From assembly GCA_029263355.1 (NCBI GenBank), contig JAJCXQ010000686.1, positions 177 through 64,176 of the forward strand: a DNA stretch of 64,000 nucleotides, read 5' to 3'. The notes under the pieces are model-generated. The model made no database searches, was not told where the DNA came from, and saw only the letters and a program-made list of their open reading frames with translations. This stretch comes from Acidobacteriota bacterium (lineage in GTDB: Bacteria > Acidobacteriota > Thermoanaerobaculia > Multivoradales > J023). Positions 144 through 19,392 of the stretch are shown in pieces. Made by a program: the position numbers and the translations under genes. Each line of letters starts with the position of its first letter. Within the stretch, counting starts at the first letter, position 1.

Positions 144-269
144 GCAGGTCTCCTCGTTGATGGAGCCGTCAATTCAGCAAGATTGAATTATACCCTTCTA
201 AACCTGTATATTCAATACATTCAGAAAGACAAGGCTGTCGTCGAGGAGAATCCGTTCGGAGGAGTAACC

Positions 270-3200
270 ATGATCCACACTTTATCGTCACGCCGCCCCT
301 CGATGTCCCTCAGGTGGGGATCAACTCTCCTGGCCACCGTTCTTCTGTCGGCAGCTCCGGGACACGCACAGCTACCGGGAAACTCCTGGAGCGGTGAGGG
401 GCCGACGCCGATCCACAACGGGCAGACCGAAGGCATCACCAACAACCCGGTGGCTGGCGCCATCAACACGGTTGCCGCACATCCGACCAACTCGGACATC
501 CTCTATGTCGGGTCGGTCAACGGCGGGATCTGGCGCACAACAAACGCCACCAGCGCGTCGCCAACTTGGACCCGCTTGACGTCCTCCGAAGCTTCACAGT
601 CCATTGGTACGATCGATTTTGATCCAACGGACGGCACCAACAACACGCTCCTCGCCGGCATCGGCCGCTTCAGCAGCTTCGCCTCGGTTGGCGGCAGCCG
701 CTCGGGGCTGCTGCGCACCACCGACGGCGTCAACTTCACCCTGATTAACGGCGGCATGGCGGGGCGCAACATCGTCGGTACGGCTGCACGCGGCACGACC
801 CTGGTTGCAGCAGTCAATATTGCGGACATTTTCAGCTGCGGCAACATCGGGGTCTGGCGATCCACCAACACTGGAGTGAGCTGGACGCAGGTCTTGGGCG
901 GCCTCGCCGACGCTCTCGCCAGCGACCCGAGCAGCACCACCACCCTCTACGCGAGCAAAGTTTTCGGTGCTGCCTGCGGCGCGGGCGTCAACGGCATCTT
1001 CAAGAGCACCGATACCGGCGCCACCTGGGCCAAGGTGAGCACAGCGGCGATGGACGCCCTGCTCAACAACAGCTCGGGCACCAACGTCGACATCGTGGTT
1101 GGCAACAGCAACAACGTCTTCGTCGCCATCGTAAATTCAGGGACCGGAGCCTACGGTGGAGTCTTCCGCTCCGGCAACGGAGGAACAACCTGGACACAGA
1201 TGGACGCTCCTGCGACCGCCGCTGGCACTCTTCACCCCGGTACTCAAGGCGGCACCCACACCTCGATCGCCGCCGACCCGACCAACTCCAACATCGTTTA
1301 TCTCGGCGGTGATCGCCAGGCCAGCCCGTTTCCCAACCCGGTCGGCGCGGTGAACTTCTCCGGCAACCTGGCACGCGGTGACGCGAGCTTAGCCCCGGGA
1401 TCCCAGTGGACGGCCCTAACCCACAGTGGCACCGCTTCGAACTCGTCGCCCCACGCCGACTCGCGCGACATGGTCTTCACGGCCGGCGGCGACCTCATCG
1501 AGACCGACGACGGCGGCATCTACCGCCGCACCTCGCCGACTTCCGCCACCGGCGACTGGTTCTCGCTCAACAACAACCTTCAGGTCACCGAACACCACGA
1601 CTCGGCCTACGACAGTCTCAACGACATCTTGATCGTCGGCAATCAGGATGTCGGGACCGCCGAGCAGACCGCCCCGCTCGGCCTGATCTGGAACCAGGTG
1701 ACCCAGGGTGACGGTGGCGACGTGATCTCCGGCCCCGGCGCCGTCGCTGGCCAAGAGGTGCGTTACTCGAGCTTTCAGAATCTGTCGTCGTTTCGCCGCC
1801 GGACGTTCAATTCCTCGAACACTCTCTTGTCGACAGTCTTTCCCGCTCTCGCCGGTGCCGCCTTCTCCCCGCAGTTCAGGACTCCTATCGCCATCAACGA
1901 GATCGCCCCCAACCGCCTGATCTTCGGCGGCGCCAACGGGGTTTTCGAGTCGCTGAACCGCGGCGATACGATCAGCCAGATCAGCAGTACAATCGTCACA
2001 GATATCTTCAACGGAGGCGGCGCCATCGCCGCGGGCGGAACCGGCAACGCCGACCTCGTCTACGTTGCTGGTGTGGCTGGCGGGACCAGCGCACTCTGGG
2101 CGCGGACGACCAGCGGCGGCGCCTTTTCGAACGTCCAAACCGCCGCCGGCGGCACAGCCATGGTCGGCGCCACCATCGATCCCGACGATGCGACCCATGG
2201 TTTCGGACTCGATTCGGCGAACGTCTACCGCACCACAAACACCGGCACAACCTTCTCCAACGTCACTGGCAACCTGCTCACGCTGAGCCCCGGCACCCTG
2301 CGCTCCATCGAATACATCAACAGCTCGTCGGGTGACGCTGTGGTCGTCGGCGCCGACCGGGGAACCTACATCGCGTCAGACAGCACCTCGTTCAGCACCT
2401 GGACAAAGTTTGGCGCGGGGATTCCGAACTCCCCCGTGTTCGAGCTCACCTACGACTCGGCAGCAGACGTTTTACTCGCGGGCACCATGGGGAGCGGCAG
2501 CTATCGGATGACGAGCCTGTCGGACACCTGCGCCGAGTCGATCGCCCTGGTCACGGGTCAGTGGAAACAGATCTCCTTAGCCTGTAATCCCGGCGGCTCC
2601 AATACTGTCGCCGATGTCTTCGGTGACGACCTCGGCGGGACCTACGACGTTGATTGGGTTGTCTTTCGGTACGACGCGTCGACCCAAACCCAGATCAAAC
2701 TGGCGACCACCGATACCCTAGCCGTCGGCGAAGGCTACTGGATCAGAACAAACCTCGGCTCACAAGTCGTCGACGTCTCGGGGACCGACAATGTGGTGAC
2801 CGACACGCCGCTCACGGGCGTCCTGGCCACCCCACCAGCGGGCTGCGCCAGCTCGGCGGGACGCTGTGGCATGGCCGGAAATCCACACGCCTACGACGTC
2901 TGCTGGGCGGACGTCCTGGTGGACGACGGCGGATTTATCAATGACTTGGCAACGGTCGATCCGGGCGGAATCTGCCAAACAACCGGCGGCGCAACGTGTG
3001 TCATGTCGCGGATCGGCCACAAGTGGACCGGCTCCGCCTACACCACTTTTGACGGCACCACCCCGGGCATGGAAGGTACCTTGGTGCCCTGGGACGCCTT
3101 CTGGATTTCGGCCAACAAGCCCGGCATCGAGCTACGCATACCGGAGACTCCAGGCGGCCCGGGCTTGCCCTGCGGACCACCCGCCAGGACTAGCGATCAA

Positions 3201-3686
3201 GGTGAAGGCTGGTTCATACGGCTGACCGCCGAGTCCGGGCAGCTGGTGGATTCCTTCAACGTTTTTGGTCAGCTTCCCGACAGCCATCGCGGGTACGATC
3301 CGCACGACCTTCAAGAGCTCGCTCCTTTTGGCACCCCGTACCTAACCGTGGTGTTCCCGCACGACAACTGGGGCGATCACGCAGGAGACTACGCATCGGA
3401 CTATCATTTGGCGCGCCCGGCGTCGCAGCCCGACGAGTGGCGATTCGACGTCCGCTCTTCGGAAACCAGTGCCGAGGTGACCTTGCGCTGGGACGGGCCA
3501 AGCTCGCGCCTCGACGGCTCGGTGCTGACCGATGTAGAGACAGGCGAACAAGTGGACGTTTCAGGCGATGGGAGCTACACCTTCGTGATGAACGGCAACA
3601 GTCGAAGTTTCCACTGGGTCTCACAGGCGGCAAGCCAGGGGCTCTTCGCGGACAGCTTCGAGTCGGGCGATACAAGCGCCTGGTAA
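270..3686 (+). CDS. Large secreted BNR/Asp-box repeat protein (~1138 aa) with C-terminal ~430-aa module shared with the 5854..8538 protein
   Basis: ATG at 270 with GGAGGAG RBS; signal peptide (RWGSTLLATVLLSAAPGHAQ); multiple S-x-D/N-x-G-x-T/S-W repeats (GGIWRTTN, STNTGVSWTQV, STDTGATWAKV, SGNGGTTWTQM, TTNTGTTFSNV); C-terminal region aligns with paralog (VDWVVFRYD.../GEGYWIRT; CVMSRIGHKWTGSAYTTFDG; FIRLTAESGQL...LTVVFPHDNW); ends ...FADSFESGDTSAW. Confidence 0.85.
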   Translation: MIHTLSSRRPSMSLRWGSTLLATVLLSAAPGHAQLPGNSWSGEGPTPIHNGQTEGITNNPVAGAINTVAAHPTNSDILYVGSVNGGIWRTTNATSASPTWTRLTSSEASQSIGTIDFDPTDGTNNTLLAGIGRFSSFASVGGSRSGLLRTTDGVNFTLINGGMAGRNIVGTAARGTTLVAAVNIADIFSCGNIGVWRSTNTGVSWTQVLGGLADALASDPSSTTTLYASKVFGAACGAGVNGIFKSTDTGATWAKVSTAAMDALLNNSSGTNVDIVVGNSNNVFVAIVNSGTGAYGGVFRSGNGGTTWTQMDAPATAAGTLHPGTQGGTHTSIAADPTNSNIVYLGGDRQASPFPNPVGAVNFSGNLARGDASLAPGSQWTALTHSGTASNSSPHADSRDMVFTAGGDLIETDDGGIYRRTSPTSATGDWFSLNNNLQVTEHHDSAYDSLNDILIVGNQDVGTAEQTAPLGLIWNQVTQGDGGDVISGPGAVAGQEVRYSSFQNLSSFRRRTFNSSNTLLSTVFPALAGAAFSPQFRTPIAINEIAPNRLIFGGANGVFESLNRGDTISQISSTIVTDIFNGGGAIAAGGTGNADLVYVAGVAGGTSALWARTTSGGAFSNVQTAAGGTAMVGATIDPDDATHGFGLDSANVYRTTNTGTTFSNVTGNLLTLSPGTLRSIEYINSSSGDAVVVGADRGTYIASDSTSFSTWTKFGAGIPNSPVFELTYDSAADVLLAGTMGSGSYRMTSLSDTCAESIALVTGQWKQISLACNPGGSNTVADVFGDDLGGTYDVDWVVFRYDASTQTQIKLATTDTLAVGEGYWIRTNLGSQVVDVSGTDNVVTDTPLTGVLATPPAGCASSAGRCGMAGNPHAYDVCWADVLVDDGGFINDLATVDPGGICQTTGGATCVMSRIGHKWTGSAYTTFDGTTPGMEGTLVPWDAFWISANKPGIELRIPETPGGPGLPCGPPARTSDQGEGWFIRLTAESGQLVDSFNVFGQLPDSHRGYDPHDLQELAPFGTPYLTVVFPHDNWGDHAGDYASDYHLARPASQPDEWRFDVRSSETSAEVTLRWDGPSSRLDGSVLTDVETGEQVDVSGDGSYTFVMNGNSRSFHWVSQAASQGLFADSFESGDTSAW

Positions 3687-3746
3687 CGGCGATACGAGCC
3701 CCTGATAGAATGGGGGCTCGACTGAGAACAGAAAACAAGGTGCGAC

Positions 3747-3914
3747 ATGGATATATTGAAATCTGATCCGGCGCTCGAGACGCCAGCAGCGGGGGAAGCG
3801 AGAGCTGCTGAGCGTCCCTCGCGCCCCTACCAGAAACCTGAACCCAAGCTTTATGGCCAAATCCGTCCCAGCTTGATCGGATCGCCGCCACCGCCGCCAG
3901 GCAAGGGTTTCTGA
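3747..3914 (+). CDS. Candidate 55-aa precursor-like peptide MDILKSDPALETPAAGEARAAERPSRPYQKPEPKLYGQIRPSLIGSPPPPPGKGF (small ORF, unannotated in ORF track)
   Basis: ATG with AAGGTG 4 nt upstream; AT-rich 5' codons in a GC-rich genome; stop 19 nt before the S24/S26-like peptidase gene on same strand; hydrophilic N-part with Y-x4-P-x-L-x-G reminiscent of RRE-binding leader motifs, Pro5 tail; adjacent to PqqD/HprK-like genes. Confidence 0.45.
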   Translation: MDILKSDPALETPAAGEARAAERPSRPYQKPEPKLYGQIRPSLIGSPPPPPGKGF

Positions 3915-3933
3915 TACGGCCCCTGCGGCCAGC

Positions 3934-4536
3934 ATGGGATTGAACATCGCCCCTAGGAACGTCGCGTTGGGGACAGCCGCCTCCGGAGAGATTGCGCAAC
4001 AGCTTCTAGCGCGGGCTTTGCGCGCCGAGAAGGCGGCTCGGCTCCAAGTTCGGGGCCGCTGCATGGAGCCCTTGATTCGCGACGGCGATTGGGTCGAGGT
4101 TCTGCCGCCCGGTGCAGCGCAACACGGCAGTATCGTCCTGGCCCGCAACAGCAGTGTCGTGTTGGCCGCAAGCGGCAGTGACGATCTGGTCTGTCACAGG
4201 GTCATTGCGCGGGACGGCGACAGCGTCTGGCTAGCCGGCGACCACTCGGTGGCGGTTGAAGAACACCTCCCAGAGAGTGTGCTCGGTAGGGTCATCAGCG
4301 TTGATCGAGGAGGCGTGGTGCAACACCTCGACGGACCGGCGGTCCGCGGTCTCGATCGACTCGAAGCCGGTTTGCACCGGCTCGCTTGGCAACATCGCGG
4401 CTCACTCGTGAGCCGCGTGCTGGAAAAGTTCCGGCGGGCGCTTCTGGAGTTGCGCGCTCAAGCCTGGGCAGCGGGCGCCAAACTAGCCAACAGAGCGGGC
4501 ACATCGTCCCGTTTCCGGCCGGCTTCCAGCCGGTAG
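3934..4536 (+). CDS. S24/S26-fold (LexA/signal-peptidase-like) peptidase homolog with Cys at the nucleophile position
   Basis: GRCMEPLIRDGDWVEV resembles SipW/Sec11-type box (SGSMEP..GD..V) with C for S; downstream LVCHRVIARDGDSVWLAGDHS resembles HRV and GDNN boxes; 3' end overlaps convergent HprK-like gene by 79 nt, so C-terminus/start uncertain. Confidence 0.6.
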   Translation: MGLNIAPRNVALGTAASGEIAQQLLARALRAEKAARLQVRGRCMEPLIRDGDWVEVLPPGAAQHGSIVLARNSSVVLAASGSDDLVCHRVIARDGDSVWLAGDHSVAVEEHLPESVLGRVISVDRGGVVQHLDGPAVRGLDRLEAGLHRLAWQHRGSLVSRVLEKFRRALLELRAQAWAAGAKLANRAGTSSRFRPASSR

Positions 4537-5336
4537 CCGGGAATCGACCGACCGAGCCTCACCAAGGCCCGGAATCGATCCCCGGCAGCGGCCCCAGAGC
4601 TCAGGAAACCGCTCTGCCCCACCAAAACGTCTACCAGATCCGGCAACATCAACGGCGAGACGACGCTGTCTTCATGGTCGACAATCTCAGGACAAACGAT
4701 CGCCTGGAGCTCGATGTTAGTGGTGGTCGGCCAGGGTACTGATCTGGTCGCCGCACCACGAGGAAAAGCCACCATGCGGGGGCCATCCTCGCCCGGAGCG
4801 AGCCACACCACATCGTCCGAGAGCACCTCGTGCCCGGCGCGGTGGACATTGCCAAAAATCGTCGACTTCCCGACGCCGCTCGGGCCGGGCAACAGGATCC
4901 CAAAACCATCAACCGCGACGCCAGCAGCGTGGATCCCGAACCAACCACGACTCGCGCCCAACTCGATGAGCATCGGCACGAGGGCCAGGCCGATGAAAAG
5001 ATCCAACTCACCATCGGAAGGGCTCTCGAGGCAGAGGCCACCCCGGCCCTCCGTCACATCACACCAGGCCAGTACCCTCGGCAGCTCGAAGAAGATTTGA
5101 TCCCCCGCTTGCCGAACAGTGAGCGGAGGCTCCTCGACGACCGTCCTCCCCCTCGGCAGCGGCGCCGCTGCTCGCGCTCCGACGCTCACCTCGACCGGTA
5201 AGCCGCTCGCCGCAACCGCACCATGGATGAAGTAGGCCAGGAACGCCTCGATACGCTGATGCAACGGCCTCGGCAGGGGGTCGAAACGAAAAACCAGACC
5301 GGATCCGATCGGGACCACCAGAGAGGCGCGGGTCAT
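4458..5336 (-). CDS. HPr kinase/phosphorylase C-terminal-domain-related P-loop protein (HprK-related kinase)
   Basis: GIHAAGVAVDGFGILLPGPSGVGKSTIFGNVHRAGHEVLSDDVVWL matches HprK C-domain (G.HA..V...G.G.L..G.SG.GKS....G..L.SDD.V); ATGA start/stop overlap with upstream PqqD-like gene. Confidence 0.8.
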   Translation of the reverse strand: MTRASLVVPIGSGLVFRFDPLPRPLHQRIEAFLAYFIHGAVAASGLPVEVSVGARAAAPLPRGRTVVEEPPLTVRQAGDQIFFELPRVLAWCDVTEGRGGLCLESPSDGELDLFIGLALVPMLIELGASRGWFGIHAAGVAVDGFGILLPGPSGVGKSTIFGNVHRAGHEVLSDDVVWLAPGEDGPRMVAFPRGAATRSVPWPTTTNIELQAIVCPEIVDHEDSVVSPLMLPDLVDVLVGQSGFLSSGAAAGDRFRALVRLGRSIPGYRLEAGRKRDDVPALLASLAPAAQA

Positions 5337-5644
5337 GGGGCGTCGACACGCTCGACCAAGCCAAGCTCATGGAGCCGGGTCACGAACTCGAGCAAATCGG
5401 AACTGGCGCGCGAAGCCTCGATGCCGAAGTGCCTGGCGACCGCTTCTCCGACAACCCGGAGCTCGGACTCACCGTCGAGACGGTCCCAGATGAAGCCCCC
5501 GGCCTCCCCCACACCGTAGTAGCTACCCGAGTCGAGATCCAGGATCAGATAGTCGCCGGGAGAGCTTTCGCCGGTTGACGCTTCGCCGCGGACAACTCGA
5601 TCCGTCAAGCTGAAGTTGGCTTCTTCGCCACCATGTGAGTGCAT
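5333..5644 (-). CDS. PqqD-family protein (RiPP recognition element-like peptide chaperone)
   Basis: 103 aa; DYLILDLDSGSYYGVGEAGGFIWDRLDG...SDLLEFVTRLHELGLVERV matches PqqD/RRE pattern (Y..LN.ta..iW.ll.g....e.......l.efl..L...GL); translationally coupled to HprK-like gene. Confidence 0.8.
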   Translation of the reverse strand: MHSHGGEEANFSLTDRVVRGEASTGESSPGDYLILDLDSGSYYGVGEAGGFIWDRLDGESELRVVGEAVARHFGIEASRASSDLLEFVTRLHELGLVERVDAP

Positions 5645-5853
5645 TGATTGGAAGGTTATCAGATCGTCTGCCTCGCACCGGCGTGCCTTGATTTCGACCA
5701 GAATTTTGCATATTCTCTAATCGAGGTAGATCTATCTGCCCAAATGTTACGGCCCACTTGGCGTGGATCCAAAATCTTCATCTAGCGGATGCGGGTCTTT
5801 ATCCAGAGTTCGAGTTCCGGGTCGATACTCATCTTATAGATGGAGGTTTTGTT

Positions 5854-8538
5854 TTGAGATTTCGCACGTTACTGATTGCAGCTTGCTTGCTGTTATCCTT
5901 TTTTGCAACGTCCGAGACCCATGCCGCGATTAGCGTCATCAACGTTTCGGTCCCGCAAGAGATTGCGCCGGGAGAATCCTTCAACGTCACCTACACCTTG
6001 AGCGGCACCAGCACGCTGGCGGTCGCCGAGTTGAGGTTCTACCTCGGCGCCTCTCCCACCAGCCGAGACTTTGGCCCTCTAAACGAGTCATTTCAACTCC
6101 CTTTGATCGGCACGTTCCCCTCGTTTGGTCCGCCAGCCGGCCCGCAGACACGGTTCATCCGGATGCCCACGTCCCTGCAGTCGTTTGGCTGTTTCCCTTC
6201 GGGCACTTGGTACTTCATCTTGCAGGTCGATAGCGGCTCACAAAATGCCGACAGCTTCCAGGTTGCACCGCTCTCGATCTCCAGCTTCACACCACAATCT
6301 GGCCCGCCCTGCACGCCAGTGACCGTCAACGGCAACAAGTTCGGTGACGTGAACGTGAACGTGAACGGCCTTTTCTTCAACGGCACTCCTGCCGTAGGAA
6401 CGTTTGTCAACGACACGACAATCACCACTAACGTGCCACCGGGCGCGACGACGGGACCCATTCAGCTCCCAAACTCATGCAGCCCCAACCCCGGCGTGTC
6501 CTCACCATCACCCTTCTTTGTGACGCCTTTCGCCAATCCGCCAGTCGTCAACAGTTTCACCCCTACCACGGCTTCGGTTGGCGCCTTTGTTCAGATCTTC
6601 GGTGAGAACTTTACAGACACCACCACTGCCGTGCTCTTCAATGGTACTCCGGCATCGCGCGTGTTCATCAATCCTCAGCTAATGGTCGCGTTTGTGCCCA
6701 ACGGTGCTACGGACGGTCCGATTACCGTGGGCTCAGTGTGCGAGGGATCCGATGTTTCGACATCCGACTTCATTGTCGACCCCCACTGTCTTTCCGCCGC
6801 CGAGTTTCTCAATGCCTCCCGCATTGACTCGGTAAGATTGGGCAATCTCGAGTATGTGAACAACGAGATGCCGAGTTGTACGTTCTACACCAACAACTCA
6901 GACCTCGTGACCCATGTCTTTCCCGGGCAGACCGGACTCCCGATCCAGATCGGACAAGGTTCTTGCGACGCCAACAACTTCAACAAGGTCACTAAGCTGT
7001 TCGTCGATTGGAATGGCGACACAGACTTCAGTGATCCTGGCGAGTTGGTGTTGACCGGACCTCCGTTTCCCAACGCGCTGCTGTCTGGCACCTTCAGTGT
7101 TCCGCCGTCGGCGGTCTTGGGCCCGGCCCGGATGCGGATTGTGACGCAGGCTGCCGCTTCGTCGGACGATGTCACCGACTGCGGCCTGTACAACTTCGGT
7201 GAAACTCAGGACTACACACTAGAAATCTCGGCGTGTGCCGGGTTCCGAGATTTGCCGGCAGGGAATTGGCACAGTATCTCCATACCTTGCGATCCCGGGC
7301 TCGAGAACACCGTGCAAGATCTCTTCGCCGACGATTTGAGCGGTGTTTATGGCATCGATTGGGCGCTTTTTACCTACGATGTGAACACCGGGCAGTCCTC
7401 GGTGATGGCTCTCGGCGATACCGTCGAGACGGGCCGGGGTTATTGGCTCAAAACTCGCGACGACGGCCAGAGTATCGGTCCTGGAGGAATCGTAAACCCG
7501 CAGGCGATCGGCATGGGTGGACAACCCAGCTCGATGACCGATATGTCCTTGGTCGCGGACCCGGCGGGCCGCTCCAATCTAGTTGGATTCCCCTACACCT
7601 TCAGTGTCGATTGGGCCGATGTGCAGGTGGTCGACGGTGGCAACGTCCTAACTCTCGATCAAGCCGATCCGGTGGTTGGGCTCGATCGCGCCTGCGATCT
7701 GGATCCACCCCACGCGAGCTGTGTCATGTCACGATTGCTCTACCGGTGGAACGGGGCGGCTTACGAGACATTCAACGGAGCGACCCCCGGCGCTGAAGGT
7801 GTGCTCAGCCCGCTGGATGGCTTGTGGGTCAAAGCGTTCAAGAGTGGTATTTCTCTGAGAATTCCCGCGGTTCCCTCGAGCCGGGATGCGGAGCGAGCGG
7901 GGGATGAAGTAGACCCGAACAGCTGGTTCATTCGGCTGATCGCAGAATCAGGAAATCTGCGGGACGCCGGCAACATCTTGGGCGAATCGGAGCAGAGCGT
8001 CGAAGGTTACGACCTCGACGACTTGGCCGAGCTGCCGCCGTTTGGGCAACCGAACCTGACCGTGGTTTTTCCACACCCGGATTGGGAGGAAAGGGCCGAC
8101 GACTATACGACGGACTTCCGCCCCTTGAATCTCGGTCTCGAGTCCGAGCCGACACTTTGGCACTTCGAGGTCCGATCCTCGGACCCCACCGCCGACGTGA
8201 CTCTGAGTTGGGAAGGATCCGGCACTCGGCTGCTCGGCTCGGAGCTGTTCGACGAGGAAACCGGCGAGCGGGTAACGATTCGCCCCGGCGCGAGCTACTC
8301 GTTCACCATGACCGGGCCGAGTCGTCACTTCGAGTGGTCGGTGCAGGGAGTGTCACCGTCGGCCGGTCAAATTTTCGCGGACGGATTCGAGTCGGGCAAT
8401 CTGGGCGCTTGGCAATCCCTGGGCTCGGGTCGATCCGCGAACACGCTGAAGGTCGAGTTCGAGAGTGACGTCCAACCACGACAACACGACTCAAAACTAG
8501 AACCGCGGAGCAGAGCGAGCGAGACGATCAGGCAGTAG
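5854..8538 (+). CDS. Large secreted protein with two IPT/TIG domains, a GEVED domain and the C-terminal module shared with 270..3686
   Basis: TTG start at 5854 with GGAGG 7 nt upstream (no in-frame ATG before signal peptide LRFRTLLIAACLLLSFFATSETHAA); IPT-like repeats (FTPQSGPPCTPVTVNGNKFG..., FTPTTASVGAFVQIFGENF...); GEVED-like motif CGLYNFGETQDYTLEI; C-terminal alignment with first protein; ends ...FADGFESGNLGAW + 48 aa. Confidence 0.8.
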   Translation: MRFRTLLIAACLLLSFFATSETHAAISVINVSVPQEIAPGESFNVTYTLSGTSTLAVAELRFYLGASPTSRDFGPLNESFQLPLIGTFPSFGPPAGPQTRFIRMPTSLQSFGCFPSGTWYFILQVDSGSQNADSFQVAPLSISSFTPQSGPPCTPVTVNGNKFGDVNVNVNGLFFNGTPAVGTFVNDTTITTNVPPGATTGPIQLPNSCSPNPGVSSPSPFFVTPFANPPVVNSFTPTTASVGAFVQIFGENFTDTTTAVLFNGTPASRVFINPQLMVAFVPNGATDGPITVGSVCEGSDVSTSDFIVDPHCLSAAEFLNASRIDSVRLGNLEYVNNEMPSCTFYTNNSDLVTHVFPGQTGLPIQIGQGSCDANNFNKVTKLFVDWNGDTDFSDPGELVLTGPPFPNALLSGTFSVPPSAVLGPARMRIVTQAAASSDDVTDCGLYNFGETQDYTLEISACAGFRDLPAGNWHSISIPCDPGLENTVQDLFADDLSGVYGIDWALFTYDVNTGQSSVMALGDTVETGRGYWLKTRDDGQSIGPGGIVNPQAIGMGGQPSSMTDMSLVADPAGRSNLVGFPYTFSVDWADVQVVDGGNVLTLDQADPVVGLDRACDLDPPHASCVMSRLLYRWNGAAYETFNGATPGAEGVLSPLDGLWVKAFKSGISLRIPAVPSSRDAERAGDEVDPNSWFIRLIAESGNLRDAGNILGESEQSVEGYDLDDLAELPPFGQPNLTVVFPHPDWEERADDYTTDFRPLNLGLESEPTLWHFEVRSSDPTADVTLSWEGSGTRLLGSELFDEETGERVTIRPGASYSFTMTGPSRHFEWSVQGVSPSAGQIFADGFESGNLGAWQSLGSGRSANTLKVEFESDVQPRQHDSKLEPRSRASETIRQ

Positions 8539-8554
8539 AGCGAACAGGCACGGT

Positions 8555-9685
8555 TTGCTCGCTGCACCGCGAGGCCCATACACTTCGCAGGTGGTCTTGC
8601 AAGTGTCCGTTGCCCCGCGGGGTCCATCAGCGGCCCGATACAGTTCTATTGAGCGACAACTGGTAGAACTGGTCGCGGCCATGACAGGTCGAGACGAGGC
8701 CTTCTCGCAGCAATGCGAGGAGGTCCGGAATTGGGAGCGTCTGCTCGAATCCGCGCTGGAGCACGGCGTCGCGGGTGTTCTGATGCAGCGCATCGCGGAC
8801 ACCGGCATTAGCCTACCGGCAAAACCTCGCGAGGCGATTGAGCAACGTCTCGCCGTCGACCGCCTGTGGCATCGCCACATGACGGGGGACCTCAGGCAGG
8901 TCCTGCAGGCGTTCGCGGAAGACGGGTTACATACCGTGACCTTGAAAGGACCGGTGCTGAGCGAACGTCTCTACCCACGGGCAGCGCTGCGTGCTTCGGG
9001 AGATCTCGACCTGTTGGTCCGCCCCGCGGACATGGCGCAAGCCCGGGAAACCTTGATCCGCATCGGCTATTCCCCCAGACCAGGAGCACCCCTTCTTCAC
9101 GCCAGCGTCTTCGACCACTCCGGTGGCGGCAATGTCGACCTGCACTATCGCGCCTCCGACGGCTTCGCCACAACCCTGGAGGCCGAAAACCTCGTCACCC
9201 GCTCGATCCCCTACGACACGGCGGACGCGGGAAGGGCGTGGATTCTGGCGCCGGAGGACGAATTCCTCTATCTCGCCGTTCACGCCGCGCGTCACCGATT
9301 TTTGCGACTACGCTGGCTCTACGATCTACATCTTTTTGCGCAGCATCATCCCGATCTCGCCTGGGAGACGATTGCCATCCGGGCCAAGGCGCACCACGTT
9401 CAACGGGCGGTTTCAACCACCTGCGAAGCGCTCGAAAGGCTGCTGCCGGAAACGCTTCCGGAGGCGGCAAAAGCCCACCTGCGACAAGAGCCCGTTCGGT
9501 CACGCATCGTGATGGCCGTGGCGTCGCTCTCTGCCGTGGCCGACGACAGCGTTTGGCGCAAAAGCTACCGAGTCTTCTGGCACGTCACCTATCACGCCCT
9601 CCTCGGCGAAAGCAGCGTCGCCAGCATCCGGTTCTGGTGGCAGTCCCTAGCGCAGGCTGCAGCGCGGCTCTGGCGCACGCGCTAG
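8555..9685 (+). CDS. Nucleotidyltransferase-family protein (PF14907-like 'uncharacterised nucleotidyltransferase')
   Basis: KGPVLSERLYPRAALRASGDLDLLVRPADMAQARETLIRIGYSP and DLHYR... fit the PF14907 pattern; start uncertain (TTG 8555 or ATG 8681). Confidence 0.65.
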   Translation: MLAAPRGPYTSQVVLQVSVAPRGPSAARYSSIERQLVELVAAMTGRDEAFSQQCEEVRNWERLLESALEHGVAGVLMQRIADTGISLPAKPREAIEQRLAVDRLWHRHMTGDLRQVLQAFAEDGLHTVTLKGPVLSERLYPRAALRASGDLDLLVRPADMAQARETLIRIGYSPRPGAPLLHASVFDHSGGGNVDLHYRASDGFATTLEAENLVTRSIPYDTADAGRAWILAPEDEFLYLAVHAARHRFLRLRWLYDLHLFAQHHPDLAWETIAIRAKAHHVQRAVSTTCEALERLLPETLPEAAKAHLRQEPVRSRIVMAVASLSAVADDSVWRKSYRVFWHVTYHALLGESSVASIRFWWQSLAQAAARLWRTR

Positions 9686-9703
9686 CCGACCTCAGGCGAT
9701 TCA

Positions 9704-10459
9704 TCACATCCATCCGCGCCAACGATAGACCACCATTCCAAGGTATTCTTTGATGGCGCGGGTGCTGCCTTCGAGCGCTTCGGCGTCAGGCAGCCATCCT
9801 ATCCCCTCCTCAACAATCTCAAAGTCGGTAGGGGCAGCAACCACATCGACCCCAGCGGCGCGAAAGGTGGCCAGAGCCCTTGGCATGTGCAGCGCAGAAG
9901 TCACCAGCAATACTGTCTGCGGCCCTCTCTGCTCGAGCAGCACTCGAGTGAAACGGGCGTTCTCGTAAGTGGTGCGGCTCTCAGCTTCGATCAAGATCGC
10001 GTTCCGTGGGACACCAAATTCGACCAAAAGATCTGCGATCAGACTCGCCTCAGAAGCCGCATCGGGCGGTCCTCCACCAGAGGCGACGATCAACGGCGCC
10101 TTGCCGGCGGCAAACAAATGTGCCGCGTGGCGGACGCGATCCGATGCCGCCGTCAGATTGCTGGTGAGCCGCGGTGGAATCGGCCCACCGACAAAGCCAC
10201 CGAGCACCACGATCACGTCTCTCTGCGGTAAGTCCTCCGCAGCGGAGGGCGGATAACGCTGCTCCAGGGAACCTCGCAGACCGACTGAAACCACGGGCAG
10301 CGAAGGCAGCCCGAGAGTCAGCAGAGCAAGCGCCAGGCAAACCGCCACCCACAGCCGGCGACGACGCCAAAGGGCCAGGGCGGCGAGGATCAACAGGCCG
10401 AGGCCTGCGGGCAGCGGATAAACCACTGCGGAGACGGCGCCGAAAAAGAAGTCAGTCAC
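9704..10459 (-). CDS. YdcF/DUF218 (SanA/ElyC-like) family membrane-anchored protein
   Basis: N-terminal TM; VIVVLGGFVGG...RVRHAAHLFAAGKAPLIVASGG...LLVTSALHMPRALATFRAAGVDVV characteristic of DUF218. Confidence 0.8.
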   Translation of the reverse strand: MTDFFFGAVSAVVYPLPAGLGLLILAALALWRRRRLWVAVCLALALLTLGLPSLPVVSVGLRGSLEQRYPPSAAEDLPQRDVIVVLGGFVGGPIPPRLTSNLTAASDRVRHAAHLFAAGKAPLIVASGGGPPDAASEASLIADLLVEFGVPRNAILIEAESRTTYENARFTRVLLEQRGPQTVLLVTSALHMPRALATFRAAGVDVVAAPTDFEIVEEGIGWLPDAEALEGSTRAIKEYLGMVVYRWRGWM

Positions 10460-10468
10460 TGCACGGTG

Positions 10469-11638
10469 CTACTGGAGAATCTCCGCCAAGATCTTCCATC
10501 GACCGTCCTCTTCCACCAGCTCGAGGATCTTGTTGGCGGCGACTTTGATGGTGTCGGATCGGTAGAGCTGCCGGAGCTGCACCCTTGCCGATCCAGCTTC
10601 CATGGCGAGAATCTCCGGATTCTCCACCGTCACCTCGATGAAGCTCGGACCTTGGATCCGGGCTCGTCGGTGACTCTCCCATTCACTGCGGCTCTGTCCT
10701 TCCGGCGGCTGGAATCCGGGAGCGTAGAAGGCGAGGTAGTCGTCCACTCGCTGATCCGACCAGGCCCCGGCCCAATCCCGAACCATGGCTAGGACTTTCG
10801 CCTTCCGTGACGCGGGCGCGTCCGGTTGGGGTAGCGATTCAGGTATCTCGGTCGTAGGTGTCTCGAGTTCAGGCGATCCACCCGTCTCAGGCGGCACCTC
10901 GTCTTCAGTCGACACCTCGATCTCAGGCGGCCCCTCGACCTCTGGCGACGCCTCAGTCTCTGGACAGCGTTCTGCTATCCGGAGCCGGCTCAACTCGGAC
11001 CGAGTGACAGCCAACTCGTCTAGCAGCTTCCGTTGCGCGATATCAGCCAACCCTAGCTGTCGCGTCAAACCGGCGATATCCGCCTGCGCCTTGTTCAGTT
11101 CGTCTTGTAGCGCTTGCTGCCTGGCAGCGAATTCCGCCGACTCCTCTTGATCCCTAGAAGCAACTTCCTCGGTCTCGGAACGAAGGGCCGACTCACTTTC
11201 AACGGTTAGCCCAGCCTCCTCCGAGCCGCTCGGGGGCCGGGGAAGATCAAACTCGACGAGATAGCTCGGACGCACCACAACCTCGCCGTTGATCTCCAGC
11301 AACGATTGAGAGTCTTCCACCTCGACCAGCGTCCCCTCGCCGACATCGATTCTCTTGGTCTCCGCGCCAACAGTGAGCTGATAATAAATCAGCCCGACAT
11401 CACCAACCTCAAGGCCCGCCATCCGACCCTTGTCGATGGTGGCAACACCTTGATGGACACTCGAGATCGTGACGATGAGCGTTAGGATTGTTTCGGTAAT
11501 CACCAATTTGACCCCTTCTAGAGCCATTATAGCGAGCAGCGTCGGATCGCCGATCCCGACTCCATCGAGCGCAGAGTGCTCGACTTTGAACGCTCCAGAA
11601 TCGCGTCGCGGAAGCTTGCAGAGGCCAGCTGGACCCAT
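10469..11638 (-). CDS. Hypothetical protein with coiled-coil centre, Pro/Glu-rich linker and C-terminal alpha+beta (NTF2/SnoaL-like?) domain; start uncertain
   Basis: Long ORF; QQALQDELNKAQADIAGLTRQLGLADIAQRKLLDELAVTRSELSRL coiled coil; C-term VLAMVRDWAGAWSDQRVDDYLAFYAPGF...WKI. Confidence 0.5.
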   Translation of the reverse strand: MGPAGLCKLPRRDSGAFKVEHSALDGVGIGDPTLLAIMALEGVKLVITETILTLIVTISSVHQGVATIDKGRMAGLEVGDVGLIYYQLTVGAETKRIDVGEGTLVEVEDSQSLLEINGEVVVRPSYLVEFDLPRPPSGSEEAGLTVESESALRSETEEVASRDQEESAEFAARQQALQDELNKAQADIAGLTRQLGLADIAQRKLLDELAVTRSELSRLRIAERCPETEASPEVEGPPEIEVSTEDEVPPETGGSPELETPTTEIPESLPQPDAPASRKAKVLAMVRDWAGAWSDQRVDDYLAFYAPGFQPPEGQSRSEWESHRRARIQGPSFIEVTVENPEILAMEAGSARVQLRQLYRSDTIKVAANKILELVEEDGRWKILAEILQ

Positions 11639-13747: not shown

Positions 13748-14710
13748 ATGTCCGAATCCCTCGCCTTGAGCATCGTCGTGCCGATCTTCAACGAGCGCGA
13801 CAACTTACAAGATCTCCACGCTGAGCTGATGGGTGTCTTGGTCGATGGTTATGATGGCTACGAAGTGATCTATGTCGACGACGGCAGTACCGACGGCTCG
13901 GCAGCTATCCTGGCCGAGCTTGTCGCAAGCGAACCTACTGCGATCGCGGTGTTCCTGCGTCGCAACTACGGCCAGACCGCCGCCTTCGCAGCGGGCTTCG
14001 CTCAGGCGCGCGGAGAAATCGTGGTGACGATGGACGGTGATCTACAAAATGATCCCAAGGACATCCCGAACCTGCTCGCCAGGTTGGACGAAGGGGCCGA
14101 CGTGGTGAGCGGTTGGCGAGTGGATCGACAGGACACTCTGATACGGAGGCTGCCATCAATGCTGGCCAACCGCCTGATCTCGGCGGTGACCGGGGTTCAC
14201 CTGCACGACTATGGTTGTTCGCTCAAGGCCTATCGTTTGGAGATCTTGAAGGACGTGCGTCTATATGGCGAGATGCACCGATTCTTGCCAGCGCTGTGCC
14301 ACTGGCAAGGTGCGACGATCGCCGAGGTCGAAACCCGCCATCGCCCCCGTACCCGGGGCATCTCGAAGTACGGCATTGGCCGCACGCTGCGGGTGATCAT
14401 GGATCTGCTGACCGTCAAGTTCCTGATGAGTTTCTCTACCCGGCCCTTACACGTTTTCGGCAGTGTAGGCTTGATCTCGCTGGCGCTCGGAATGGCGGTC
14501 AACCTTTACCTCACTTTTCAGAAACTGGTACTCGGTATGGCGATCGGCAATCGGCCGTTGTTGCTGCTCGGTGTATTGTTGCTGTTCACTGGGTTTCAAT
14601 TCATGAGTATGGGCCTGCTGGGCGAGATGCTGGCCCGCATCTACCATGAGTCTCAGCAGAAGCCCATTTACTCGATTCGACGGATACTCTCGGGGACACC
14701 CAAAGTATGA
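13748..14710 (+). CDS. GT2 polyprenyl-phosphate glycosyltransferase (GtrB/ArnC/Dpm1-like)
   Basis: LSIVVPIFNERDNL...YEVIYVDDGSTDGS...TMDGDLQNDP; two C-terminal TM helices typical of GtrB-like enzymes. Confidence 0.88.
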   Translation: MSESLALSIVVPIFNERDNLQDLHAELMGVLVDGYDGYEVIYVDDGSTDGSAAILAELVASEPTAIAVFLRRNYGQTAAFAAGFAQARGEIVVTMDGDLQNDPKDIPNLLARLDEGADVVSGWRVDRQDTLIRRLPSMLANRLISAVTGVHLHDYGCSLKAYRLEILKDVRLYGEMHRFLPALCHWQGATIAEVETRHRPRTRGISKYGIGRTLRVIMDLLTVKFLMSFSTRPLHVFGSVGLISLALGMAVNLYLTFQKLVLGMAIGNRPLLLLGVLLLFTGFQFMSMGLLGEMLARIYHESQQKPIYSIRRILSGTPKV

Positions 14711-15405
14711 CCACTGTGCGTAGCTCGGAATATGCCGAGAAGGGCGACTATCACCGCCATCTCGATAAGAACTGGCGCTTCTACCCGATTTATGTCGCCA
14801 AGATGGCACGGGTACGCGAGCAACTTGAAAAACTGCCGGCAGACGCCAAGATCGCCGACCTGGGTTGTGGCGAAGGTATCCTGGTGGAAGAGCTACGAGA
14901 CCAGGGACGCGATGCGATCGGCATCGATCTCAACTACGAGTCTGAAGCTGTCATCAAAGATGACATCACCCAGACTCGGTTCGACAGTGAGTCATTCGAC
15001 GCCATTCTCTGTCTCGACGTGCTGGAGCATCTGCAGTTCGACGACCAAGTCAAAGCACTGAGTGAAATCTATCGCTTGCTGCGGCCAGGAGGTCGCTTGA
15101 TCGCGACGCTGCCCAACTTGGCGCATTTTTCGTCACGCTTCTCGTTCTTGCTGCTGGGACGGCTGCTGCGAACCTCGGAGGTCGAGCGCCACCCGGGGGA
15201 CCGTCCGATCGCCGAATACATTGATCTGATCGAGTCCAACTTCGTGATCGAGCACCGCAAAGGGATCTTCCCAACCTTCCCTTTGACACTCTACTTGACC
15301 GTCAAGATCCCCAGCAAAGTGGTGGGATGGCACCGCTTCCTCAACGCGTTTTTCGCGGTGCCCGGCTGGTGTTTCTTGAACCTGCTGGTCTGCCGCAAGA
15401 AATAA
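14707..15405 (+). CDS. Class I SAM-dependent methyltransferase
   Basis: IADLGCGEGILVEEL (motif I), LRPGGRLIATLPN; ATGA overlap with upstream GT2. Confidence 0.8.
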   Translation: MTTVRSSEYAEKGDYHRHLDKNWRFYPIYVAKMARVREQLEKLPADAKIADLGCGEGILVEELRDQGRDAIGIDLNYESEAVIKDDITQTRFDSESFDAILCLDVLEHLQFDDQVKALSEIYRLLRPGGRLIATLPNLAHFSSRFSFLLLGRLLRTSEVERHPGDRPIAEYIDLIESNFVIEHRKGIFPTFPLTLYLTVKIPSKVVGWHRFLNAFFAVPGWCFLNLLVCRKK

Positions 15406-15409
15406 CGCG

Positions 15410-17368
15410 TCACTCAACGTCGAAACGGATCGGCTCGATGCTCATCGGTAACGGGTAGAACATCGGATCACCTTCGAAGCGAACCACGACACGGACCTCG
15501 CCGATTCCGGGATCGTCTGCTCCCTCACCCGTGGCTGTGATCACATAACCCTCCCAGCCCGCGGTCAACGCGTCGCGACGGAAACTCTTCGCCACGTCGG
15601 TACGATGGACGCCGAGCACCAGCTCACCACAGATGGCGCCTCGACGATCGAGCACCAGAACCTCGGCAACCCTAGCGCCCGACCTGTAAGCCCAACCTCC
15701 AAGGCGAACAAAGTTCGCGCTGATCCGAGTCGAACGGTCGACGTAACCCGCCATGTCCTCTAGTAGCCGATCCGCCAGACGCTCAGGCTCGATCAGTTCA
15801 CCGAGACGCAGGGGCCAGGGGCGATCGAACGGCACGTGCCCCGTGCGCTCGAGGTAGGCGCGACGCATCCACACATGCTCAGGCCAGGGCGCGACTGTCG
15901 CCTCGATGATCTCGTTGTCTGGCACGCCGTGGACCACTGCAAGGGCAGCGACAGGCTGCCGTGCGCCCCGCGCCACAAAACGATCCACCACCGGACCTCC
16001 GCGAAGGTGCATCGCCGTCGCCAGCCCTGCCACCAACGCCAACAGCAGAACCGCACCTACGACCCGAACAGGCGGCTGGGAAGGCCGATAACGCCACGCC
16101 AGCAGCCCGATCGAGGTCAGCAGGCCGATCCAGAACAGTGCCGCCAGCGAGCCGTAACGAGACGACATCGCTTGCGCTTCGCCGAACCCGGAACGGCCGA
16201 CGGCAGTCATCAACGCGTTACCTAAACCGTAGGCCTGAATCATCAACCACGGCGCCATCTCGACACGTAAAGACTTAGAGCTGAACGATAGCAGGACACA
16301 GCCCGCGACCACCAAGCCACTGGCCGCGATCGCGATCAGCCCGATCGTCCGTGCGGTCACCAACTCGCCGGAGAAGATCGAGCCCAGATAAACCGCCGCG
16401 TAACGTAACAACGACGTGGGATGACGAGTCTGTAACTCAGGGTGGTAGGGCAGCGACTCGTAGGACAGAGCGAAGAGAGCGACCACCAAACCCATTCCGC
16501 CGCCGAGCAGTAACAGGCGACGCCAGCTCAAACGCAGAAACACCCCGCCAGCGATCAACACCGGCCACAGAATCAAGTGAGTGCTGTGGCTGAAGGCGGC
16601 GGCGATGCCGAACAACAGCACCGGCCATACCGCCCACATCGTGCCGATCTCGGCACGCCGAGTCAAAGCAACGATCGCAGCAACCGCCAGCACATTGGCA
16701 AAGAACCAAATACTGCCACTGAATCCCATCGCCACGTTATGCGCCGCAACTGGCGAAAAACAGAACAACGCCACACCCAAGCCGAAGGTGACCTTGCCCC
16801 AAGGGCTGGCACGAAGTGCCGATGGCAGAGCCGAGACCAAAAGCACCAGTTCCAAGGTCAACAGCAGCAGAGAGAAAAATGTCAGGCCAAGATTGTGGCC
16901 GTTGGTGAGCAGGATGTTGAGAGCGTAAACCAACAACGGCAGTGAAGCGCGGTGCTCGTTCGACTTCAGATTCAGCCAATGCACCGGATCAACCGACAGG
17001 CCACCGCCTTCAGCTTCGCCGCCAACTTCGATCATGTCGCCCAGGATGGCGTAATAATCGTTGTGCTGCATTCGGCCGAAGCTCGAAAATTCGCCTAGGT
17101 AAACGACGATCGGCGACACAATTATCAGCCAGGTCACCATGCTGACGAGCAGCTTCGATCGCCGAACTGCGGGCACAGATCCCGAATGAGATTCACCACG
17201 TGGCGAGTCGACACGTGGCGAGTCAGCTTGTGACGAAACGTCTTCAGAGGACATCATGAGCTCGATGCATCGGGTCTTGGCGTGGCGGATGGACGAATCG
17301 TCAGCGGGCAGGCGGGGGTGGGATGCCGATGCAGTGTAACCACCGCTTTCGAAAAGCGTCAATAGCAC
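15410..17368 (-). CDS. Polytopic membrane protein with C-terminal soluble domain (putative glycosyltransferase-like; paralog of 17382..19190); true start probably ~17260
   Basis: ~10 TM helices; strong similarity to adjacent paralog (PVAAHNVAMGFSGSIWFFANVLAVAAI... / HSTHLILWPVLIAGGVFLRL); 5' region contains the duplicated promoter-like motif. Confidence 0.6.
   Translation of the reverse strand: MLLTLFESGGYTASASHPRLPADDSSIRHAKTRCIELMMSSEDVSSQADSPRVDSPRGESHSGSVPAVRRSKLLVSMVTWLIIVSPIVVYLGEFSSFGRMQHNDYYAILGDMIEVGGEAEGGGLSVDPVHWLNLKSNEHRASLPLLVYALNILLTNGHNLGLTFFSLLLLTLELVLLVSALPSALRASPWGKVTFGLGVALFCFSPVAAHNVAMGFSGSIWFFANVLAVAAIVALTRRAEIGTMWAVWPVLLFGIAAAFSHSTHLILWPVLIAGGVFLRLSWRRLLLLGGGMGLVVALFALSYESLPYHPELQTRHPTSLLRYAAVYLGSIFSGELVTARTIGLIAIAASGLVVAGCVLLSFSSKSLRVEMAPWLMIQAYGLGNALMTAVGRSGFGEAQAMSSRYGSLAALFWIGLLTSIGLLAWRYRPSQPPVRVVGAVLLLALVAGLATAMHLRGGPVVDRFVARGARQPVAALAVVHGVPDNEIIEATVAPWPEHVWMRRAYLERTGHVPFDRPWPLRLGELIEPERLADRLLEDMAGYVDRSTRISANFVRLGGWAYRSGARVAEVLVLDRRGAICGELVLGVHRTDVAKSFRRDALTAGWEGYVITATGEGADDPGIGEVRVVVRFEGDPMFYPLPMSIEPIRFDVE
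17332..17363 (-). promoter_or_regulatory. Copy 2 of the 32-bp promoter-like motif (TTGACG-N18-TACACT) upstream of the membrane-protein gene
   Basis: CAGTGTAACCACCGCTTTCGAAAAGCGTCAAT (plus strand) vs copy 1 CAGTGTATCCACCGCTCGCGAAAAGCGTCAAT, 28/32 identical. Confidence 0.45.
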
Positions 17369-17381
17369 ACCGGATCCGTGG

Positions 17382-19190: not shown

Positions 19191-19236
19191 GTCTCGCTTT
19201 GATGAGGGCCAGGCTGAAATTATTGGGATAACGACT

Positions 19237-19253
19237 TATGCTTGAAAAGCATA
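19237..19253. promoter_or_regulatory. Perfect dyad TATGCTT-gaa-AAGCATA in divergent promoter region
   Basis: 7-bp inverted repeat with 3-bp spacer in AT-rich intergenic region between 17382..19190(-) and 19393..(+) operon. Confidence 0.35.
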
Positions 19254-19392
19254 TACGGTTCATGCCGTGTCTCCGTCACAGTTCCGACTTGGCGCTGTAG
19301 TCCGGGATACCGTCATCTGGGATACCGTCATCCGGGCTGCCACCAACCGACCCCAATCCTCCGGGACTAAAAACCTCGAGCTTGTTTCGACT

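Follow-up and report, generated by a model that had tools for sequence, protein, structure and literature searches.

We analysed a gene cassette near the start of a 64,000-nucleotide (nt) stretch of Acidobacteriota DNA (contig JAJCXQ010000686.1), hereafter called the window. The cassette comprises a small, Pro-rich open reading frame (ORF) of 55 residues on the plus strand (3747..3914), a candidate for the precursor of a peptide that is ribosomally synthesized and then modified post-translationally (RiPP); a gene for a 200-residue peptidase of the S24/S26 (LexA/signal-peptidase) fold on the same strand (3934..4536); two minus-strand genes, for an HprK-like peptide kinase of 292 residues (4458..5336) and for a discrete PqqD-family RiPP recognition element (RRE) of 103 residues (5333..5644); and, on the plus strand further on, the gene of a nucleotidyltransferase-fold protein of family PF14907 (NTP_transf_5; 8555..9685). 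Every ORF named in the first-pass annotation of this DNA was found where it had been placed. That annotation had also described the gene set as one without a characterised counterpart, a view that no longer holds, because the same gene set is found in the family of “linear polyphosphorylated peptides” (LPPs) of Bacillota (lppA-K-B-S-D-N; Popov et al., Nat Commun 2026;17:6633, PMC13381572). LPP clusters encode the archaeal-type SipW-like peptidase LppS (TIGR02228), the discrete RRE LppB, the HprK-like kinase LppK, the nucleoside triphosphate (NTP) transferase LppN and the MsbA-like exporter LppD (PMC13381572).

Kinase homologs were used to gather related loci, which gave 22 distinct loci consisting of the window and 21 further ones, the latter designated by L numbers where they need to be told apart; a search for related loci with a 14-sequence alignment yielded 6 + 6 loci. 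The ORFs of the 22 loci were searched with profiles of the window proteins, and several of the contigs are short, so the counts reported here are lower bounds. The neighbourhood proved to be conserved, in agreement with the first-pass grouping of these genes into one cassette. A PqqD gene was found in 19 of the 22 loci, beside the kinase gene in nearly all of them; a peptidase gene in 15, mostly convergent with the kinase gene and overlapping its 3′ end; and the precursor motif described below in 12, beside the peptidase gene or upstream of PqqD. A PF14907 gene was present in six loci, lying 3 kb off in the window and directly beside the PqqD or kinase gene in L003, L008, L010, L013 and L024. 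Two further gene types recur: Sulfotransfer_3 genes in six loci, 0.5-5.5 kb from the kinase gene, and genes for large secreted proteins with a common C-terminal domain in ten, at a distance of 2 kb or less. The kinase homologs are rare: at 90% identity they fall into about 44 clusters, every one of which comes from metagenomes or metagenome-assembled genomes (MAGs). The contigs of the relatives bear the labels Thermoanaerobaculia, Acidobacteria/Acidobacteriota or unclassified MAG, and in one case “Deltaproteobacteria”.

The small ORF is preceded by AAGGTG, a Shine-Dalgarno-like sequence. Its relatives share the leader motif Y-x-x-P-x-(L/P/V)-x3-G-x-(I/L)-x-P, which a hidden Markov model (HMM) and a regular expression located in small ORFs of 12 distinct loci, against 0.4 in shuffled ORFs, and ten of the 12 carriers continue with x-L-(x)-x-G-(S/T)-P-P. 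These relatives are flanked by a large gene on one side and the peptidase gene on the other, or else stand immediately upstream of PqqD. Between the window ORF and its counterpart in L002, differences number 13, 7 and 19 at codon positions 1, 2 and 3, with 14 synonymous codon changes; the small ORF therefore evolves as a coding sequence. Judged by this coding signature and by the conserved motif, the 55-residue ORF is a conserved precursor peptide gene, in keeping with the earlier proposal that the small Pro-rich ORF encodes the substrate of the cassette. An inverted repeat, GAGCCCC-N10-GGGGCTC without a T-run, lies at 3699..3722 between the stop codon of the large upstream gene and the precursor ORF, and may serve in transcript attenuation or processing; a promoter and terminator scan of 3500..9800 returned nothing exceeding chance.

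Within the window peptide, the leader motif spans Y28 to L43 (nt 3828..3875) and is followed by the predicted core I44-F55, 'IGSPPPPPGKGF' (nt 3876..3911). The first part of the 12-locus motif is the known RRE-binding element [Y/W]xxPx[L/V/I], through which discrete lasso-type RREs bind leaders (PMC10368454; PMC13381572). Predicted core length varies from 8 to 38 residues across the precursors, and the sole invariant feature of the core is G-(S/T)-P-P. The precursor genes of L014 (2029..2775) and L023 (9438..9668) lie upstream of PqqD and keep the leader, with a different core, ...GRIEPGMA(A/P)STFEKKIE, that has no polyproline. RiPP precursors usually combine a conserved leader with a core that varies, and these two loci fit that pattern. 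L016 holds a single weak precursor candidate, YKRPWLKTSG....

The register of the motif was compared with that of LPP precursors, whose motif is YxxPxVLxHQxIxFETxxS (PMC13381572). Y0, P3, I11 and S18 share the LPP register in nine of the 12 precursors, with VL, HQ and FET replaced by (L/P)x, xG and PxL. A Ser or Thr stands at Y+18 in nine of the 12, the L014/L023 type included, and at Y+19 in the other three. In the LPP system, LppK adds up to four phosphates to core Ser3, and LppS cuts after T(-1), cutting unphosphorylated precursor poorly (PMC13381572). Because the Y+18 spacing of the Ser/Thr matches Ser3 of the LPP consensus, we infer leader cleavage at about L43|I44 and Ser46 (nt 3882..3884) as the phospho-acceptor. 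An alternative, lasso-style register would place the Tyr at -17 and start the core at Gly45.

The proposed recognition protein was confirmed as a PqqD-family member by its match to PF05402 (54 bits, gathering score 23.4), and its predicted translational coupling to the kinase was read directly in the sequence, where the RRE stop codon overlaps the kinase start codon as ATGA. The best match of the RRE among Protein Data Bank (PDB) structures is the lasso RRE PbaB1 (9x90, E 4.8e-9), with LppB (9x8z) at E 0.18. Its identity to the profile of LPP RREs is only 17%, and its sequence shows a lasso-like SGxYxxLGExGGxIW signature.

The HprK assignment of the kinase holds for its catalytic motif and its structural matches and falls short at every curated family threshold applied. 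The protein scores 27 bits against Hpr_kinase_C, under the gathering score, and 29.7, 35.5 and 18.6 bits against the NCBIfam models HprK_rel_A (TIGR04352), HprK_rel_B (TIGR04355) and ScmC (TIGR04249), which have cut-offs of 200, 200 and 125 bits; it also carries a precomputed PF27840 annotation. BsfK, a peptide kinase from a lasso cluster, has the catalytic motif H148-G163-G166-G168-K169-S170-D186-D187 (PMC10368454), and the window kinase presents H136 (nt 4929..4931), G151, G154, G156, K157, S158, D174 and D175 with identical spacing, the P-loop extending over G151-T159 (nt 4860..4886) and the catalytic D174-D175 pair lying at nt 4812..4817. Most of these eight residues are invariant in 31 homologs, and the kinase family profile matches the HprK/P structures 1jb1 and 1ko7 across the P-loop and the DD motif. 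For the Bsf system, strong stimulation of BsfK by the RRE BsfB1 has been reported (PMC10368454).

The arrangement of the kinase and PqqD genes shows two variants among the related loci. L012 carries two tandem PqqD-kinase pairs (1830..3412 and 4305..6501), with neither peptidase nor precursor detected on its contig. In L021, no PqqD gene is detectable upstream of the kinase gene (9770..10861), and precursor, peptidase, big protein and sulfotransferase are all there.

The peptidase scores 29.5 bits against PF00717 (Peptidase_S24), for which the gathering score is 23.3. Its AlphaFold2 (AF2) model, with a predicted local distance difference test score (pLDDT) of 85.6, shows a beta core like that of LexA/SEC11, preceded by an N-terminal amphipathic helix and followed by two helices at the C-terminus, with no membrane segment, and Foldseek matched it to the LexA C-domain, SEC11, UmuD′ and SpsB. 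The protein has neither a signal peptide nor a membrane anchor. When the profile of the window peptidase family was compared by hhalign with a profile of eleven LppS-family sequences from Supplementary Data 1 of PMC13381572, the match extended over 126 columns with a probability of 98.7% (E 2e-16) and with the catalytic positions aligned, pairing 'GrCMEPLIrdGD' with 'G.SM.PLIrEG', 'LVCHRV' with 'LigHR' and 'LAGDRS' with 'cKGDsN'. On this profile comparison, the peptidase family is homologous to the LppS family of Bacillota; 16 of 23 members also give weak TIGR02228 matches, all under the cut-off. In LppS itself, S29, H68 and D93 are essential, cleavage requires LppB, and the N-terminal helix touches the sheet formed by RRE and leader (PMC13381572).

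The predicted catalytic residues of the window enzyme are Cys43 (nt 4060..4062, codon tgc), His88 (nt 4195..4197) and Asp103 (nt 4240..4242). The LexA alignment puts C43 at the position of Ser119, and C87-H88-R89 and G102-D103 are invariant in the family alignment, where a second invariant Cys thus directly adjoins the catalytic His in the C-H-R triplet. Cys43 would act as the nucleophile of a (Cys or Ser)/His/Asp set like that of SipW/Sec11-type peptidases. By fold and motif the protein belongs to peptidase clan SF, which is marked by a LexA/SPase beta-barrel, a nucleophile within G-x-S-M-x-P and a general base some 40 residues further on; the nucleophile position is nevertheless Cys. This residue occupies the position in ten of 14 distinct loci (the window, L003, L009, L010, L013, L014, L018, L021, L023 and L024) and in 13 of the 16 informative rows of the window-peptidase family alignment. 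A profile search of 1.84 billion representatives returned 48 matches at E<=1e-30 and 2824 at E<=1e-10. Among these matches and the earlier homologs examined (clusters at 50-90% identity), at least 72 are Cys-type (GxCMxP...VCHR) and 66 Ser-type, and the Cys type fills nearly all of the best ~75 peptidase matches. We know of no description of a cysteine-type member of the LexA/signal-peptidase fold.

Two other explanations of these residues were considered and rejected. A Ser/Lys protease of the LexA type does not fit, the general-base position being the invariant His of C-H-R and the family aligning with LppS. An assembly error at Cys43 does not fit either, since an independent Logan assembly (L001) scores equal to the window copy and Cys dominates the subfamily. 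The first-pass description of an S24/S26-like leader peptidase is therefore retained for the fold, the PF00717 match and the kinship with LppS, and revised for the catalytic type, which is not the Ser/Lys arrangement of S24 enzymes since the set is predicted to be (Cys or Ser)/His/Asp.

The peptidase and kinase genes converge and their 3′ ends overlap by 79 nt (4458..4536), the overlap ranging from 4 to 169 nt in other loci. As judged by eye, the peptidase tail 'RFRPASSR' is apparently an antisense reading of the kinase motif 'YRLEAGRKR', both of them conserved.

The PF14907 assignment of the protein encoded at 8555..9685 was upheld with 159 bits. Supplementary Data 2 of PMC13381572 places LppN under NTP_transf_5, and that paper saw no visible effect of deleting LppN; PsmN attaches hexoses to the phosphate of phosphoserine; the window protein is predicted to be the counterpart of LppN/PsmN and to decorate phosphoserine. 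Sulfotransfer_3 genes lie at 16060..17025 in L002, 13043..14038 in L010, 3225..4157 in L016, 2508..3422 in L018, 16394..17293 in L021 and 14910..15797 in L024. Synteny with L024 would place a sulfotransferase gene of the window genome beyond the window, a short way upstream of its position 1.

The genes that would make a lasso peptide were sought and not found, as the first-pass annotation had maintained. The SGGxDS PP-loop of Asn-synthetase-like cyclases occurs in no ORF of any locus or of the 64-kb window, the remainder of each genome being out of view. Asn_synthase (PF00733), Transglut_core3 (PF13471), Radical_SAM and YcaO are absent from the Pfam scans of the larger window ORFs, and these four families are equally absent from eight Pfam-annotated neighbourhoods of ~20 kb. 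The lasso core rule, which asks for Gly/Ala/Ser/Cys as residue 1 and Asp/Glu as residue 7-9, does not describe the shortest cores, GSPPPPP, GSPPGPP and GSPPLPP, which contain neither Asp nor Glu. An ordinary lasso cluster was rejected on these grounds, namely the missing PP-loop protein, the missing Asn_synthase and Transglut_core3 families and the short cores without an acidic residue. A related reading is that of a split or decayed lasso cluster, with the cyclase and the B2 protease encoded elsewhere or lost, and with RRE, kinase and PF14907 protein left as its tailoring genes. The YxxPxL leader and the closeness of the RRE to the lasso RRE PbaB1 speak for it, lasso clusters of the paeninodin/Bsf type typically carry kinase and PF14907 genes as accessories, and the visible flank upstream of the first gene measures only 183 nt, the sequence beyond being out of view. 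However, the lack of an SGGxDS protein extends over 22 loci as well as the 64-kb window, the two lasso families are missing from all eight ~20-kb neighbourhoods, the shortest cores offer no Asp or Glu for a ring of 7-9 residues, and a conserved LppS-type peptidase stands where B2 would be. We consider a lasso origin of this kind highly improbable.

Upstream of the precursor gene and on the same strand, 183..3686 encodes a large secreted BNR/Sortilin-like protein with weak Sortilin-Vps10 and glycosylhydrolase matches. Its true start is probably an internal Met ahead of the signal peptide, and its product ends in FADSFESGDTSAW and has a C-terminal domain of ~340 residues without a Pfam family. 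The same domain recurs in the product of 5758..8538 (plus strand), another large secreted protein, in which Pfam identified TIG and GEVED domains and whose gene lies between the PqqD and PF14907 genes. Giant proteins are encoded within 2 kb in the window, L002, L005, L008, L009, L010, L015, L021, L022 and L024, despite rearrangements, and many of them terminate in FADGFESGDTSxW. The AF2 model of the common C-terminal domain (pLDDT 75.9, mostly beta-strand) had no PDB match at E<=0.001. We regard 183..3686 and 5758..8538 as associated genes, whose role in the pathway, if any, is putative.

These neighbours bring in a second explanation, under which the peptidase matures the giant secreted proteins, as SipW does for TasA, the small ORF is a polyproline stalling element or regulatory upstream ORF, and PqqD and kinase form a separate module. 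The order of big protein, small ORF and peptidase on one strand in the window, L002, L008, L021 and L024 is consistent with this, as is the position of the PPPPP run, in or near which the small ORF ends just ahead of the peptidase gene; genuine SipW enzymes moreover fall in the same wider family (PMC13381572). Against these points, the peptidase is soluble, without anchor or signal peptide, its N-terminal amphipathic helix is like the one with which LppS contacts its RRE, and it is present in loci without big proteins (L003, L013, L014, L018 and L023). The small ORF, for its part, stands upstream of PqqD in L005, L014 and L023, the L014/L023 cores lack polyproline and keep the leader, and that leader motif is one known to bind RREs. 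Maturation of the giant proteins therefore appears to us an improbable function of the peptidase.

A polysaccharide/envelope locus follows the cassette at 13748..26288, with four GT2 glycosyltransferases, a methyltransferase and, at 15410..23381, four large ORFs without a Pfam family; LPP clusters are also located in capsule loci. Because giant secreted proteins and polysaccharide genes recur nearby, the surroundings point to a cassette tied to the cell surface or matrix, as proposed for LPPs. The stretch 9704..11638 holds two genes, one DUF218/ElyC-like and one of the Cds6_C type. Far downstream, 48258..51560 encodes a 2-oxoglutarate dehydrogenase E1 homolog with a cyclic-nucleotide-binding domain (PF00027) inserted near its N-terminus.

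Taken together, we consider it likely that the cassette makes a linear, leader-dependent, phosphorylated ribosomal peptide, LPP-like and formed without a cyclase; its working would also resemble that of the tailoring part of lasso clusters with kinases. In the proposed pathway, the discrete PqqD-type RRE would bind the 55-residue precursor through the YxxP leader motif and hand it to the translationally coupled HprK-like kinase, which would use NTP to place one or more phosphates on Ser46, at core position 3. The soluble peptidase (Cys43/His88/Asp103), docked via its N-terminal helix, would then remove the leader at about L43|I44 and release a peptide of ~12 residues, I-G-pS-P-P-P-P-P-G-K-G-F. 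The PF14907 enzyme would probably add a glycosyl or nucleotidyl group to the phosphate, and the sulfotransferase, where present, may modify the product further.

Several observations weigh against this interpretation. Kinase, RRE and peptidase all score under the curated NCBIfam cut-offs of their named relatives; PF14907 is found in only six of 22 loci; and no MsbA-like exporter, which is a core LPP gene, lies near any locus, the only ORF that combines an ABC signature with Walker A being an unrelated transporter in L006, and no ABC family occurring among the scanned window ORFs. A relaxed-motif search found no precursor in L009, L011-L013, L016, L017 and L022. Ahead of the predicted cleavage site stands P-x-L (P-S-L in the window), compared with F-E-T in LppA. 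The Cys at the nucleophile position and the invariant Cys beside His88 could signify another chemistry, or a metal or disulfide site. Because the RRE is closer to lasso-type B1 proteins than to LppB, the cassette may have an origin of its own, apart from the LPP clade of Bacillota. For the LPPs themselves, neither the final product nor what LppN does has yet been established (PMC13381572).

A third explanation draws on some of these same points. It holds that phosphorylation is not what defines the product: the HprK-like protein would serve as an NTP-dependent scaffold or a phosphorylase, and the peptide would instead be nucleotidylated, sulfated or transformed in a Cys-dependent manner by the 'peptidase'. 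The kinase scores of <=35 bits against curated cut-offs of 125-240, the sulfotransferase genes within 0.5-5.5 kb in six loci, the unusual conserved Cys pair of the peptidase and the unknown activity of LppN are compatible with it. It is countered by the kinase, which keeps all eight catalytic and ATP-binding residues of proven peptide kinases at the same spacing, and by the core, whose sole invariant hydroxyl occupies the position that is phosphorylated in LppA; only roughly one locus in four has a PF14907 gene, and equally few have a sulfotransferase gene. On this balance we regard a chemistry other than phosphorylation as quite unlikely.

Beyond the LPP-like pathway preferred here, a bolder proposal can be framed, which we put forward tentatively and think doubtful. 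The cassette might represent a distinct RiPP class of Acidobacteriota-like bacteria, with an ultrashort product of the form ~(I/L)-G-pSer-Pro5 that is maybe glycosylated, nucleotidylated or sulfated and is released by a LexA/signal-peptidase-fold enzyme with a Cys nucleophile. Such a class would combine RRE and kinase of lasso type, brought together independently of the LPPs of Bacillota, and its product would act with the giant secreted proteins, perhaps as a signal or as a ligand of the matrix or adhesin kind.

Three points give the cassette wider interest. If a divergent LPP relative exists in a second phylum, the scheme is widespread, beyond Bacillota. The short G-(S/T)-P-P core would be a much simpler substrate for learning what the kinase and the PF14907 enzyme build. 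The Cys-type peptidase subfamily is of enzymological interest, as Cys takes the position held by the catalytic Ser in LexA, signal peptidases and LppS.

Among known systems, the LPP clusters are the closest in composition. In both, a discrete RRE of the PqqD family and a kinase resembling HprK accompany PF14907 and a soluble SipW/S26-type peptidase that begins with a helix, and a cyclase is absent; a YxxP leader, a Ser at Y+18 and surroundings of cell-surface or polysaccharide genes are further shared features. They differ in host range, in that LPPs are stated to be restricted to Bacillota, with function unknown (PMC13381572), whereas the relatives of the cassette come from Acidobacteriota/Thermoanaerobaculia-type MAGs. 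They also differ in the peptidase, most cassette enzymes having Cys at the nucleophile position where LppS has Ser; in the RRE, which is nearer to lasso RREs than to the LppB clade; and in the core, which has 8-38 residues and is Pro-rich in the cassette, compared with 45 residues in LppA and Gly/Asn/Pro-rich cores among the listed LPPs. Unlike LPP clusters, the cassette has no MsbA-like exporter, and sulfotransferases and giant secreted proteins are its frequent neighbours.

Lasso clusters with kinases (paeninodin, pseudomycoidin and Bsf of Bradymonas) resemble the cassette in their PF14907-type transferase, which decorates the phosphate, and in the sulfotransferase that is sometimes present. 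In contrast to these clusters, the cassette has no Asn-synthetase-like cyclase and no transglutaminase-like B2 protease, and its core is too short for a ring, the shortest examples lacking an acidic residue. The SynChlorMet ScmC/ScmD and HprK_rel_A/B systems (TIGR04249, TIGR04248, TIGR04352 and TIGR04355) likewise pair an HprK-like P-loop protein with a PqqD-like one, but the cassette scores far under their cut-offs and has no radical SAM/SPASM partner. Our search of the literature on PF14907 together with PqqD, and on signal peptidases together with PqqD and a kinase, returned nothing beyond PMC13381572.

The supplement of that paper also lists RRE-adjacent SpI-like peptidases in cluster 3 (Acidobacteriota, Myxococcota and Chloroflexota) and cluster 18 (Thiolapillus) of a sequence similarity network (SSN), which were not analysed there (PMC13381572). 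Like the window peptidase, their members are small soluble peptidases of the same fold beside discrete RREs outside Bacillota, and the window enzyme is 32% identical to one SSN-listed SpI-like peptidase, RPJ14135.1 (E 4e-13). The Thiolapillus protein is likewise Cys-type, with 'GHCMAP', whereas cluster 3 is Ser-type with an 'AHRV' motif and another RRE type, and its kinase, precursor and product fields read 'ND'. Set beside all of these systems, what is new in the cassette is the Cys-type leader peptidase subfamily, the minimal polyproline core, the lasso-like RRE and the occurrence in a new phylum.

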